Shown piece by piece: positions 11,653 to 13,970 of a stretch of DNA of 64,000 bases. Numbering within the stretch: position 1 is the stretch's first letter; each line of letters opens with the position of its first letter. The translations under genes were made by a program, and so were the position numbers. The notes under the pieces were generated by a model, which saw only the letters and a program-made list of their open reading frames with translations, was not told where the DNA came from and ran no database searches. The stretch lies in the NCBI RefSeq assembly GCF_003334335.1, contig NZ_QOWQ01000006.1; one strand, given 5' to 3'. This DNA comes from Escherichia coli. Its GTDB lineage: Bacteria > Pseudomonadota > Gammaproteobacteria > Enterobacterales > Enterobacteriaceae.

Positions 11653-13314
11653 TTACTCTGCTTTTTCTTCGACGGGAGTTGTTGAGGTTAAGGGTGAAGT
11701 CAATGCCGCCAGTGAGCCGCCTGAAACGCCAATTTCATTGAGCAAGGAGTCAATCAGCGGTGCCTGTGTGCGGTAAGAGAGAGCGGCTGATAATGCTTGT
11801 TCCGCCAGGTTTCCGCCCCCCACATTACCCGTGTTTGCATCACCCGCAGCGCCGCCACGATTCAGACCATCGACCTGAATAATCTTGATACCGTCGATTG
11901 ACTTCATCGGCTCAACGGATTTCTCTATTACCGCAGGCAGCGCCTGCAACAAGGCCAGTTTGAATTTAAGGCTGGTTTGTTCATCAGAAAGTACGTTGAT
12001 AGCATCGTTCAGCGCACGTTGTGCTTCTGCTTCCGCCAGACCCTTTTTACGTGTAGCTTCGGCTAACTCAACGATAGCCGCCGCCTGCATCTCTGCGGCT
12101 TCTTTTTCTGCTTTCGCCCGCACGGTCAGTTCAACCGCTTTGGTTTCTGCATCCTGCGCGGCAGCGATTAGGGCAACTTGTTTAGCACGATCGGCTTCGG
12201 CAGTCTGGCGAGTGGTTTCTACGTTTTGTTGGGCGCTTACCGCTTCTGCAAGTGCGAGATTAGCACGCGCTTCTGCCTGGGACTGTTGTTCCGATTTGGC
12301 GGCAATAGCGATCGATTTCGTCTGGTTAGCGATTTCGGTGACCTGCTGCTGTTCGATCTCTTTAATGCGAACTTCACGTTCAGCTTCAACCTTTCTTGAG
12401 CGGACGGCCTGTTCGCGGTCGATTTCTGTTTCCTGAATCTGTCGTTCAGCCAGAATTCGTGTCTGCTCTGCTTCACGACGACGTTCAGCTTCAAAAGCCG
12501 CAATACGTGCATTCTGTTCGGCAGTACGGGTTTTAACCTGCTGCTCCTGCTCAAGCGTCATAAACGCTTCTTGCTGTTCAATCTCCAGCTTGCGCGATAG
12601 CGCATCGCGATTTTTTTCACGCACCGCAACTTCTACATCCTGTTCAACTTCGTTACGTTCGCGGCGACGGCGCTCTGTTTCCTGAGTCAGTTTGGTTAAA
12701 CCTTCGGCGTCAAAGGCATTGTTCGGATTGAAATGTTCTTTCGAGGTCTGGTTAAAGTTGGTAAGTGAAACGCTCTCCAGTTCCAGACCGTTTTTCGACA
12801 GGTCTTCTGCCACTGTATTTTGCACCCCCTGCACAAAGTTCTCGCGGGTATCCTGTAACTCATGCATGGTCATTTGCGCAGCTGTTGCACGGAGGGCATC
12901 GACAAATTTATCTTCAACCAACATACGTAAGTCTTCAGGCGACAGGGTGCGTTGCCCCAGCGTCTGGGCAGCGGTGGCAATCCCTTCTACTGAAGGTTTT
13001 ACCCGCACAAAGAAAGCGACTACTACATCGACGCGCATACGATCTTTCGTAATCAGGCTATCAATGGTTGAGCGGCTGACTTCCAGCTTCAGAGTATTCA
13101 TATTGATGGGGATTATTTCATGAAAGATCGGCATCACGATTGCGCCACCGCTCATTACCACTTTTTGCCCACCTAAACCAGTACGAACAAAAGCTTGCTC
13201 TGCCGAAGCGCGACGATAGAGCCTGGCGAAAATAATTCCAATAATAAACAGAATGCATACGGCAATAATTGCGGTAAACATCCAGGAGGGCACAGAATTA
13301 ACAATATCATCCAT
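11653..13314 (-). CDS. yqiK: SPFH/band-7 (flotillin-like) inner-membrane protein with long E/A/Q-rich coiled-coil region
   Basis: 553 aa; N-terminal TM, SPFH-like domain, long charged coiled-coil segment. Confidence 0.85.
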   Translation of the reverse strand: MDDIVNSVPSWMFTAIIAVCILFIIGIIFARLYRRASAEQAFVRTGLGGQKVVMSGGAIVMPIFHEIIPINMNTLKLEVSRSTIDSLITKDRMRVDVVVAFFVRVKPSVEGIATAAQTLGQRTLSPEDLRMLVEDKFVDALRATAAQMTMHELQDTRENFVQGVQNTVAEDLSKNGLELESVSLTNFNQTSKEHFNPNNAFDAEGLTKLTQETERRRRERNEVEQDVEVAVREKNRDALSRKLEIEQQEAFMTLEQEQQVKTRTAEQNARIAAFEAERRREAEQTRILAERQIQETEIDREQAVRSRKVEAEREVRIKEIEQQQVTEIANQTKSIAIAAKSEQQSQAEARANLALAEAVSAQQNVETTRQTAEADRAKQVALIAAAQDAETKAVELTVRAKAEKEAAEMQAAAIVELAEATRKKGLAEAEAQRALNDAINVLSDEQTSLKFKLALLQALPAVIEKSVEPMKSIDGIKIIQVDGLNRGGAAGDANTGNVGGGNLAEQALSAALSYRTQAPLIDSLLNEIGVSGGSLAALTSPLTSTTPVEEKAE

Positions 13315-13340
13315 TATTAAATTTCCTTTTGATTAATAAA

Positions 13341-13970
13341 TTACAATATTTGGGGCCAGGGATTATTTTCCGCCAAATATCGCGTTGCAGAAAGTCGGCA
13401 AATAATTAACACTTTGTCTCCTTTAGTGAAAATTTTTCCTTCTTCAGGCTCCAGTAGTAAATAATGTATTTGGCCAAATTGATCGGTGAGTTTTCCTTCG
13501 CAGGGATTACCTGAAGTGGCTTGATGACCGGTAATTAACGCCATGCTACCAATATATTCTTCTTCTGTAATAGCTGAACTATGGTCGCGTGGAATCCAGG
13601 GCGCAACTATTTTACCGGTATAATGCACCGCAATAATCGTAAACAGTAAACTGACAGGAACCACGAACAGGTTCGACAGTGGTGATTGCCAGACCATGAT
13701 GCAGGCATGCTGCAACAGGATGCCAATAAGACCAAAAAAACCAGCCAGTAAGCAGAGAACGACGAGAGCTGGCAATCTTCCAATATTGAGATAATGAAGT
13801 GCCTGGCTAATATGACCTGTGGTTATAGAATCATAATGGTCAAGATGTGCATCAAGAGCACCGGAGAGCATGTGACCGCAGATAAGCGCAAAAATTTCTA
13901 ACAGGCCGATCAACAGTACAAAGGAAATAGCGAAAAGATAAGGGGTGTTATAGTCGGCGAATAAAATCAT
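13341..13970 (-). CDS. yqiJ: NfeD-like inner-membrane protein, partner of YqiK
   Basis: 209 aa, multi-TM N-terminus and soluble C-terminal domain; immediately upstream of yqiK in the same orientation. Confidence 0.8.

Follow-up and report, generated by a model that had tools for sequence, protein, structure and literature searches.

Within the window (the whole 64,000-nucleotide stretch of Escherichia coli DNA that was analysed), the ORF listing places two genes on the minus strand, exactly where the initial annotation had put them. The first, yqiJ (13341..13970), encodes a 209-residue protein classed from its ORF, annotation, Pfam matches and AF2 model as an NfeD2-type partner with an N-terminal membrane domain and a C-terminal OB fold; the second, yqiK (11653..13314), encodes a flotillin-type SPFH protein of 553 residues, as judged from its ORF, annotation, Pfam matches and a profile match to Flotillin-1. 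The DNA is 100% identical to that of E. coli K-12 MG1655, where yqiK is annotated as a flotillin family protein and yqiJ as an OB-fold-containing protein. The 26 nt between the genes (13315..13340, minus strand) carry the yqiK ribosome-binding site AAGGAA, and a pattern scan found no terminator-like site in them; the common strand and the short spacer agree with the two-gene operon that had been claimed. In the literature the operon is written yqiJK, with a promoter listed and an H-NS site marked in the AT-rich promoter region (PMC3946193), and it is weakly expressed in K-12. The hexamers of that promoter were located here as TTTAAA-15-TATATT (14131..14157, minus strand), a candidate sigma-70 promoter in the glgS-yqiJ spacer in a region of GC ~0.38; ahead of yqiJ a consensus scan detected no promoter on the minus strand, and the sole candidate is the literature-derived one. 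The pair is thus an ordinary, well-catalogued K-12 operon with nothing categorically new about it, already described as SPFH2/NfeD2 by Hinderhofer et al. (2009), who also reported NMR of the YqiJ C-terminus (PMC2636767).

In E. coli the operon is bordered by glgS on one side and by sib/ibs on the other, and a variable fimbrial island also lies near. The sib/ibs locus is a tandem duplication (10903..11635) of two ~376-bp units, each with a sib antisense RNA, an ibs toxin ORF and a hairpin, and is a neighbour of the operon rather than a part of it. The direct repeat copies (10903-11258 and 11278-11635; spacing 375-377 nt) are 85-92% identical, Rfam SIB_RNA matches at 10903-11052 and 11278-11427 score 142 and 148 bits against a gathering score of 56, and ibsE and an ibs-family CDS are annotated there, all of which supports the earlier statement that the operon sits beside an ibs/sib duplication. 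Starting 17 nt past the yqiK stop codon, a hairpin with a 10-bp stem (6 GC pairs), a 7-nt loop and a TTTTTT run forms the end of repeat copy 2 (11600..11636, hairpin 11636..11610, minus strand; fold -17.7 kcal/mol, z -1.9). A near-identical hairpin and U-run ends copy 1, downstream of ibsD (11224..11258, hairpin 11258..11234, minus strand; fold -15.3 kcal/mol, z -2.2), confirming that the yqiK hairpin lies inside the repeat unit; it is also kept in the single-copy strain SFAD3. From its sequence, the yqiK hairpin is a predicted intrinsic (Rho-independent) terminator.

Position, beside type I toxin-antitoxin repeats of the ibs/sib type and the fimbrial island, is the one feature that would favour reading yqiJ-yqiK as an anti-phage or conflict system, that is, a membrane-acting effector pair. 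This reading is disfavoured and highly improbable: the genes form a core pair at a fixed locus and are not island cargo, neither protein has an enzymatic effector domain, and the PADLOC-DB defence models gave no match to YqiJ or YqiK at E<=0.01, the empty result on which the defence reading was rejected.

Domain organization of YqiK and YqiJ

YqiK begins with a hydrophobic membrane anchor (aa 4-36; 13207..13305, minus strand; Kyte-Doolittle maximum 2.98), which is followed by an SPFH/Band_7 domain (aa 39-192; 12739..13200, minus strand; Pfam PF01145, E=2.1e-18) and, near the C-terminus, by a flotillin C-terminal (Flot) domain (aa 406-530; 11725..12099, minus strand; Pfam PF15975, E=6.4e-41), the model of which is matched whole (1-124 of 124) and which is the predicted cap or roof of an assembly. 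The Pfam search thereby upheld the description of a 553-residue SPFH/band-7 protein. A single-sequence phmmer search of YqiK against PDB sequences gave no match; the family profile recovered human Flotillin-1 (9bq2_B, 9l3g_A) with E-values of 8e-7 to 9.5e-7 over the SPFH domain only, the helical part scoring negatively against the solved flotillin owing to its compositional bias. On the sequence-level criteria tested, YqiK fits the SPFH/Band 7 superfamily and, within it, the flotillin family (prokaryotic SPFH2). It is homologous to FloT of Bacillus subtilis, whose yuaF-floT (yuaG) operon is of the SPFH2/NfeD2 class, but is not its equivalog, that assignment being rejected at 86.3 bits against the 700-bit cut-off of NCBIfam NF058507.

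Between the SPFH and Flot domains, and running into the latter, lies a stretch of 219 residues (aa 206-424; 12043..12699, minus strand) with not one Gly or Pro and with 41 Ala, 39 Glu, 25 Gln and 25 Arg, predicted from composition rather than from a model to be a cage-wall helix. The initial annotation had described a central low-complexity, charged coiled coil of ~200 residues with repeated AEAE/EQQ/RAK motifs. Its account of the composition stands, since E, A, Q, R and K make up 60-68% of aa 201-450 and sequence entropy falls to 3.1-3.4 bits, against 3.7-3.9 elsewhere. The coiled coil does not: hydrophobic 3.5-residue periodicity is no better than expected by chance, its power being equalled or exceeded in 66-72% of shuffled sequences, and the reading as a classical coiled coil was rejected. 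The motifs occur, if loosely (AEAE once, EQQ four times, RAK twice), and reflect compositional bias, not a true repeat. Opposite-charge pairs at i/i+3,4 number 48 against an expected 30.8 +/- 4.6 (z ~3.7). In flotillin the wall helix spans 186 residues, has no heptads and bears charge on each of its two faces (PMC11260169); because the YqiK segment too runs without heptad periodicity, it looks like such a non-heptad, doubly charged wall helix rather than a coiled coil. Long antisense ORFs also occur inside yqiK, for example 183 codons at 11885-12436 (plus strand), and a 424-residue antisense ORF cluster recurs in 23 related loci; as genes, both were judged artefacts of low-complexity coding sequence.

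Compared with the human Flotillin-1/2 cage (PDB 9bq2, 9l3g), YqiK shares the homologous SPFH domain (E~8e-7), a long predicted wall helix that is free of heptads and charged throughout, and the Pfam Flot domain at its C-terminus. The human cage is a hetero-44-mer that attaches to the membrane by lipidation and hydrophobic surfaces and has no NfeD partner, whereas YqiK has a transmembrane-type anchor, presumably forms a homo-oligomer, has a Gly/Pro-free helix of 219 rather than 186 residues and is always paired with YqiJ.

In YqiJ, a membrane domain (aa 8-119; 13614..13949, minus strand) of three long hydrophobic helices, the first two of them separated by short amphipathic ones, precedes an OB-fold domain (aa 139-202; 13365..13556, minus strand) that appears structurally NfeD-like. 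Kyte-Doolittle segments (8-39, 60-94 and 96-119) and AF2 helices (6-30, 68-94 and 100-125, pLDDT >90) describe the former; the AF2 model was built on a 66-sequence alignment (pLDDT 93), a single-sequence run having been poor (pLDDT 56). Pfam assigns the two parts to YqiJ_N (aa 8-115, 1.5e-15) and YqiJ_OB (aa 139-198, 2.7e-14), and G141, G149, D163, H169, Y170 and P175 of the OB domain are invariant or nearly so. A Tetraspanin match (E=0.003) was dismissed as generic membrane-helix similarity.

The claim that YqiJ is an NfeD-like polytopic membrane partner holds by fold and context and fails by sequence. Pfam NfeD (PF01957) does not match YqiJ, none of 66 family members matches it at E<=0.001 (one does at E=0.05), YqiJ alone found no PDB sequence with phmmer, its family profile found no solved NfeD chain in the PDB, and hhalign of that profile with a genuine Pfam-NfeD protein (from locus L005) returned a probability of 0.7%; sequence-level membership was accordingly rejected. 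Some three hydrophobic helices N-terminal to the OB domain serve as a mark of NfeD proteins (PMC2636767), and YqiJ combines these with a C-terminal, membrane-tethered OB fold and an operon shared with an SPFH gene. On its modelled fold and gene context, YqiJ is therefore NfeD-like, and not on sequence; at 209 residues and with Pfam families of its own, it is also longer than typical NfeD proteins of 140-150 residues.

Conservation and gene neighbourhood

Of 5426 complete E. coli genomes, 5425 have the yqiJ-yqiK pair and 5390 match 80% or more of the query at a single site; IS1 insertions occur occasionally. A search for YqiK homologues listed only close matches (at least 91% identity), and diverse partners were taken instead from contigs encoding YqiJ homologues, the related loci being gathered with a YqiK alignment to give a sample of 80 loci. 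A YqiJ-family ORF lies upstream of the flotillin gene on the same strand in all 78 testable loci from other species, with a median spacer of 30 nt (76 related loci), and a YqiK-type gene follows five of six distant YqiJ homologues. Adjacency of the two genes is almost always kept across Proteobacteria, and in the sample of 80 species the pairing is obligate in essence, which bears out the initial annotation in calling such pairs widespread.

Natural length variation of YqiK is confined to the wall helix. Alleles of E. coli and Salmonella carry indels of -35, -30, -13, -9, +5, +13 and +16 residues, all in-frame and all within the helix, and natural products of 518, 540, 553, 566 and 575 residues are among the variants. 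The SPFH domain does not vary between the alleles of E. coli, E. albertii and Salmonella, nor does the Flot domain between E. coli and Salmonella. A 14-nt direct repeat, ACGTTCAGCTTCAA, occurs in two identical copies with 105 nt between them (12376..12494; aa 274-278 and 309-313), one on either side of the 35-codon deletion of a natural 518-residue allele (P0268). Across a spread of 30 matches from complete E. coli genomes, full-length matches to the pair span 2317-2318 nt, IS1-carrying records aside, and so near-uniform a length implies that indel alleles are probably rare. These rare alleles are a minor new point.

Published work on the pair has yielded little by way of function, in keeping with the initial description of its function as poorly defined. 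Deletions, including a quadruple SPFH mutant, revealed no phenotype in growth, biofilm formation or stress that could be ascribed to yqiK (PMC10434171; PMC6788730), nor is E. coli known to show a phenotype like those of flotillin mutants in B. subtilis (PMC10434171). Native YqiK-GFP and YqiK-3xFLAG were barely detectable or undetected (PMC10434171; PMC6788730), and native YqiK was not detectable in detergent-resistant membrane fractions (PMC6788730). Such observations could suggest that the E. coli pair was acquired horizontally, is silenced by H-NS and survives as a remnant without present function, in line with the near-undetectable protein and missing phenotype (PMC10434171; PMC6788730; PMC2636767), the H-NS mark in the promoter spacer (PMC3946193), the low GC (0.38-0.44) of yqiJ and its upstream spacer, the IS1 insertions and a Salmonella yqiJ that bears a frameshift without measured effect. 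A relic is very unlikely, however, given the near-universal presence of the pair, the invariant SPFH and Flot domains and the strictly in-frame helix indels. Moreover, between K-12 and a strain of 94.7% nucleotide identity, yqiK differs at 83 synonymous and 6 nonsynonymous codons, indicative of strong purifying selection; the same comparison gives 19 and 8 for yqiJ.

A gene of the PspA_IM30 family lies directly upstream of the pair in 27 of the 80 loci, a linkage already noted in a survey of the PSP system (PMC11237479), and a further ORF of ~177 residues recurs beside it in 20. The PspA-associated band-7/flotillin and YqiJ/YuaF operons of that survey have the same YqiJ-YqiK core, E. coli having an abbreviated two-gene form flanked by glgS and sib/ibs with no PspA-like gene beside it. 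This neighbourhood bears on the proposal that a YqiK cage encloses or modulates a membrane protease such as FtsH, in the manner of HflK/C and as proposed for QmcA. FtsH hexamers are indeed enclosed in HflK/C cages (PMC11260169); QmcA (YbbK) is an interaction partner of FtsH, and the long forms of NfeD include a ClpP-type protease domain (PMC2636767). Yet YqiJ corresponds to a short NfeD form without that domain, pspA and the ~177-residue ORF recur beside the pair in the 80 loci and no protease gene does, and YqiK is predicted to face the cytoplasm, opposite to HflK/C, which enclose FtsH on the periplasmic side (PMC10434171). A role in protease regulation is hence considered unlikely.

A proposed flotillin cage and its possible role

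The reading best supported, to which a probability of roughly 75% is assigned, is that yqiJ-yqiK is the flotillin-type SPFH operon (SPFH2/NfeD2) of E. coli, in which YqiK would form a dome, YqiJ would stabilise it and the two would serve membrane maintenance. By analogy with solved SPFH complexes, YqiK would form a closed dome of many copies packed side by side, which would stand on the inner membrane at its cytoplasmic face. The SPFH domains would make up a ring seated on the membrane and the Flot domains the cap; between them, the long helices would build a barrel wall one layer thick. Published subunit numbers of SPFH assemblies follow wall-helix length by the regression y=0.1782x+10.22 (PMC12624060); at x=219 this gives about 49 subunits, and a dome may thus hold roughly 45-50 copies, helix boundaries and subunit number alike being extrapolations from sequence. 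The OB domain of YqiJ would bind and stabilise the assembly, as in QmcA-YbbJ and the FloA-NfeD complex of Staphylococcus aureus. The QmcA-YbbJ cage of E. coli (PDB 8z5g; Tan et al. 2024) is reportedly a 26-mer of QmcA, an SPFH1 protein of stomatin type whose wall helix is short; it differs from YqiJ-YqiK also in that ybbJ lies downstream of qmcA, the reverse gene order (PMC10434171), and in that YbbJ is a Pfam-class NfeD protein and YqiJ is not. A YqiK cage would fence off a patch of membrane, and its likeliest role would be the upkeep of stressed or damaged inner membrane, because in about one in three of the related operons pspA is the next gene upstream; for the E. coli pair, which has no adjacent pspA, this link is indirect.

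The FloA-NfeD complex of S. aureus also offers a different model, in which YqiK and YqiJ would form an open, clamp-like oligomer serving as an ATP-independent holdase that, as reported for the S. aureus complex, catches and stabilises membrane-associated proteins that unfold under stress. The logic of the gene pair, SPFH with NfeD in one operon, is the same. FloA of S. aureus belongs to the short bacterial flotillins, and YqiK differs from it in having the long helix and Flot domain. Transcriptome compilations list yqiJ and yqiK as stress-responsive (PMC9501238), which would suit a holdase, but the high-resolution SPFH structures cited all show domes that are closed or almost so, and no E. coli phenotype lends support (PMC10434171); the model is given a low probability. 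The closed flotillin-type cage is accordingly preferred.

Flotillins occur widely in bacteria, as do their NfeD partners, and this pair belongs to the real problem of what they do in Gram-negative species; since its classification in 2009 the operon has been deleted, tagged and overexpressed without clear phenotype. The wall-helix length alleles could serve as an experimental resource in this regard. With a 219-residue wall helix that exceeds the 186 residues of flotillin, and with ~49 subunits from the regression, it is tentatively proposed, as a speculation rather than an expectation, that the SPFH cage of YqiK may be larger than any proposed so far and that its length alleles, made by slippage between short direct repeats, form a natural series differing in height and in subunit number (roughly 43-52). 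If so, strains might tune the size of the enclosed membrane patch through helix length, and the alleles would provide a ready-made test of whether the length of the wall helix sets the size of SPFH cages.

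Organization, conservation and flanks of the pair

The window is E. coli K-12 DNA: MG1655 and many other K-12 strains match its nucleotides 10860-14480 at 100% identity. RefSeq gives the gene order across this region as hldE (+), ibsE (-), an ibs-family toxin gene (-), yqiK (-), yqiJ (-), glgS (+) and yqiI (-), the last encoding a fimbrial protein. The initial annotation had placed a two-gene operon here, and its coordinates for yqiK (11653-13314, minus strand; 553 aa, RefSeq 'flotillin family protein') and yqiJ (13341-13970, minus strand; 209 aa, RefSeq 'OB-fold-containing protein') were matched exactly in a mechanical ORF list. 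A spacer of 26 nt, with an AAGGAA ribosome-binding site ahead of yqiK, separates the two genes, and a pattern scan detected no terminator-like site between them. Two long ORFs run antisense through yqiK (11885-12436, plus strand, 183 aa; 12692-13123, plus strand, 143 aa), and 23 related loci share a comparable antisense cluster, of 424 aa; these ORFs were rejected as genes, since a low-complexity coding strand rich in GAA/GCN most likely produces them as artefacts.

The pair is present in 5425 of 5426 complete E. coli genomes, with at least 80% of it found in one place in 5390. Comparison of K-12 with a strain at 94.7% nucleotide identity revealed 83 synonymous and six nonsynonymous codon differences in yqiK, and 19 and eight, respectively, in yqiJ; both genes are under purifying selection. 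Such selection and the near-universal presence of the pair disfavor the proposal that it is a silenced relic. The selection data, together with an empty PADLOC search, likewise disfavor a role as a defence system. IS1 insertions disrupt the region in a few E. coli strains (genome matches H1, H13 and H20), and the genome census included 31 places on plasmids, among them an 11% yqiJ fragment on a 34-kb record.

Outside E. coli, relatives of YqiK at 46-98% identity were identified by scanning one genome per species; they occupy 80 loci spanning Enterobacterales, Burkholderia, Acinetobacter, alpha-, beta- and gammaproteobacteria, Desulfobacterales, SAR324 and Myxococcota. An HMM detected a YqiJ-family ORF upstream and on the same strand in 78 of these; the other two were untestable, their contigs ending 94 and 250 nt before the flotillin gene. 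The two genes lie a median of 30 nt apart, with more than 300 nt in only three loci, and five of six distant YqiJ relatives (28-42% identity) are followed after 13-38 nt by a YqiK-type gene. The pairing of yqiJ with yqiK is essentially obligate in the species sampled, and the earlier statement that such SPFH/NfeD-like pairs are widespread is borne out. Of the two proteins, YqiJ has diverged much faster: in locus L005, a metagenomic contig, identities to K-12 are 32 and 78%, respectively. Across L003, L005, L006, L008 and L009, YqiJ at 29-42% identity is paired with YqiK at 49-81%.

On its yqiJ side, the pair is followed in K-12 by glgS and the adjoining low-GC yqiGHI fimbrial operon (yqiI, yqiH and an usher gene; 14482 onward), which is missing from strain SFAD3; there, ubiK and the FMN riboswitch/ribB come right after glgS (locus L002, 4323-4622). 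The yqiGHI region is a variable island directly beside the conserved pair. On the yqiK side, two SIB_RNA genes (10903-11052, Rfam 142 bits; 11278-11427, 148 bits) lie inside a tandem direct repeat (10903-11258 and 11278-11635; spacing 375-377 nt). A hairpin with a U-run (11636..11610, minus strand; predicted fold -17.7 kcal/mol) starts 17 nt past the yqiK stop codon, and a near-identical copy, also with a U-run, lies at 11258..11234 on the same strand (feature 11224-11258; -15.3 kcal/mol). SFAD3 carries only one unit, arranged hldE, sib/ibs, hairpin, yqiK stop (L002, 1083-1500), to which both K-12 copies align over their whole length; unit number thus varies by strain, with one in SFAD3 and two in K-12. 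The claim that the repeat unit includes the yqiK terminator hairpin was upheld; the ancestral sib/ibs unit contained the hairpin, which the duplication then copied. The spacer segment bearing the hairpin occurs one to four times per genome (median 2; 5424 genomes, any location). Approximately 95 nt separate the ibsD ORF from the 11258..11234 copy downstream of it, which shares its strand and could function in K-12 as a terminator of the ibsD mRNA. For ibsE, no evident counterpart of this hairpin lies on the downstream side, towards hldE.

Domain architecture of YqiJ and YqiK

The Pfam families that match YqiJ are YqiJ_N (aa 8-115) and YqiJ_OB (aa 139-198). The description of YqiJ as NfeD-like fails at the sequence level: Pfam NfeD (PF01957) was not assigned to it, none of 66 diverse family members matched NfeD at E<=0.001, the family profile found no solved NfeD chain, and hhalign of this profile against a genuine Pfam-NfeD protein returned a probability of 0.7%. 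The structures tabulated under YqiJ are an NfeD-type soluble domain (3cp0, figure of 9.9), PH1510-C (3wwv, 9.6), B. subtilis YuaF (2k14, 9.3) and PH0471 (2exd, 8.3), and the description holds by fold, but not by sequence. On contig L005, a classical Pfam-NfeD gene beside a Band_7 gene (7561-8636) lies approximately 1 kb downstream of the YqiJ-flotillin pair, placing both SPFH/NfeD classes side by side. The YqiJ fold has another kind of partner in locus L007 (617-3769), where a distant homologue (28% identity) precedes not a flotillin but an 803-aa coupling-protein-like ATPase with TraG-D_C and TrwB_AAD_bind matches.

With YqiK, a Pfam search did find the anticipated SPFH domain (Band_7, aa 39-192, E=2.1e-18), together with a full-length Flot domain (aa 406-530, E=6.4e-41); the strongly hydrophobic aa 4-36 supply a membrane anchor. 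A single-sequence search matched no solved structure, and a six-member family profile matched the human Flotillin-1 chains of cages 9bq2 and 9l3g (E about 8e-7), the match being limited to the SPFH domain. The NCBIfam FloT equivalog model aligned to aa 15-490 with 86 bits, far under its cut-off of 700, and hence YqiK is a flotillin-family homologue, but not an equivalog of B. subtilis FloT.

The central low-complexity charged segment reported earlier is real, with E/A/Q/R/K constituting 60-68% of aa 201-450 and sequence entropy lowered, and with a 219-residue stretch (aa 206-424, boundaries set from composition alone) devoid of Gly and Pro (A41, E39, Q25, R25). Its designation as a coiled coil was not sustained, since 66-72% of shuffles reached the observed power at a 3.5-residue hydrophobic periodicity. 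The supposed repeats of AEAE, EQQ and RAK (one, four and two occurrences) reflect compositional bias. Residue pairs of opposite charge spaced i/i+3 or i/i+4 are overrepresented (48 vs 30.8 +/- 4.6). Fu and MacKinnon described the flotillin wall as a single-layer right-handed barrel of parallel 186-aa helices that lack heptad repeats and bear charge on both faces (PMC11260169). The YqiK segment fits this description, albeit at 219 aa, and given the absent heptad signal and the excess of charge pairs it is better called a flotillin-type wall helix than a heptad coiled coil.

Neighbours, expression and proposed assembly

Clustering of flanking ORFs identified a PspA_IM30 gene (Pfam E=2.6e-15) as the co-directional gene immediately preceding yqiJ in 27 of the 80 loci, all falling within L024-L087 (e.g., L042, 2009-2686; L080, 2199-2732). 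One gene further upstream, 20 loci have an ORF of approximately 177 aa that lacks a Pfam match and hits only NCBIfam family PA2781, weakly (E=0.008); this ORF may correspond to the CesT/Tir-like protein in a PSP survey that describes this operon class, with YqiJ/YuaF as its 3TM component (PMC11237479). The pspA-yqiJ-yqiK loci reproduce that class, of which E. coli has an abbreviated two-gene form. Of the contextual evidence on function, this neighbourhood is the most informative, and it suggests a part in inner-membrane stress or repair.

Shimada et al. reported a sigma-70 site, TTTAAA-15-TATATT, with an H-NS mark, for an operon 'yqiJK' in the glgS-yqiJ spacer (PMC3946193); its hexamers were placed at 14157..14131 (minus strand), and the spacer has a GC content of about 38%. 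Native YqiK-GFP was undetectable, and neither single nor quadruple SPFH deletions caused growth or biofilm defects (PMC10434171). YqiK-3xFLAG was only marginally detected in inner membranes and was not seen in detergent-resistant fractions (PMC6788730), and overexpression of YqiK led to larger cells (unpublished data cited in PMC2636767). The genes upregulated by NarQ include yqiJK, which itself had no effect on 3-hydroxypropionate import (PMC13124679), and a Salmonella yqiJ frameshift left egg-white survival unaffected (PMC6137255).

Domain architecture, topology elements, operon layout and the obligate pairing have been demonstrated for yqiJK. By analogy with HflK/C (24-mer), QmcA-YbbJ (26 copies of QmcA), flotillin (44-mer), and the prohibitin and erlin complexes, YqiK copies would assemble into a large homo-oligomeric dome against the inner membrane, on its cytoplasmic side: the SPFH domains would form a ring on the membrane, the helices a barrel wall and the Flot domains the cap. 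YqiJ would be tethered in the enclosed or adjacent membrane, its OB domain binding and stabilizing the YqiK assembly, as proposed for NfeD in QmcA-YbbJ and in S. aureus FloA-NfeD. Subunit number has been regressed on CC1-helix length in published work (y=0.1782x+10.22; PMC12624060), and the fit extrapolates to an upper bound of about 49 YqiK subunits if all 219 residues constitute wall. A clamp-like holdase and a protease regulator are rival readings of the pair.

Natural length alleles in the predicted YqiK wall helix

Protein clusters from public assemblies revealed YqiK alleles of 518-575 aa. In their alignment, every length difference is in-frame and inside the wall helix (12043-12699; aa 206-424), and hardly any variation is seen in the SPFH and Flot domains. 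The gains are a 13-aa duplication of AERRREAEQTRIL, a 5-aa AEKEA duplication (on 280 contigs) and, in Salmonella, a 16-aa duplication of QNVETTRQTAEADRAK. The losses are of 13 aa (including an E. albertii allele), 30 aa (a 523-aa allele), 35 aa (the 518-aa allele P0268) and 9 aa (AEARANLAL; 544-aa alleles, of which cluster P0201 occurs on 57 contigs and only P0192, on 15 contigs, was in the alignment). Identical 14-nt direct repeats, ACGTTCAGCTTCAA, at 12376-12389 and 12481-12494 in K-12 bracket the 35-residue deletion of the 518-aa allele at a spacing of exactly 105 nt (35 codons), and slippage accounts for this deletion; slippage between short repeats is thus pointed to as the source of the indels. 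Length variants are suggested to be rare, given that full-length yqiJK matches in a 30-row spread of complete genomes span 2317-2318 nt, except for three records with an IS1 insertion.

The observation of the yqiJ-yqiK pair is therefore confirmed and its interpretation supported with two refinements, NfeD-likeness by fold and the wall helix. The system is already known and annotated, and the in-frame alleles are a minor new point. If wall length sets cage size, these alleles would constitute a natural test series, and it is only through them that the locus makes the question of physiological role newly testable.
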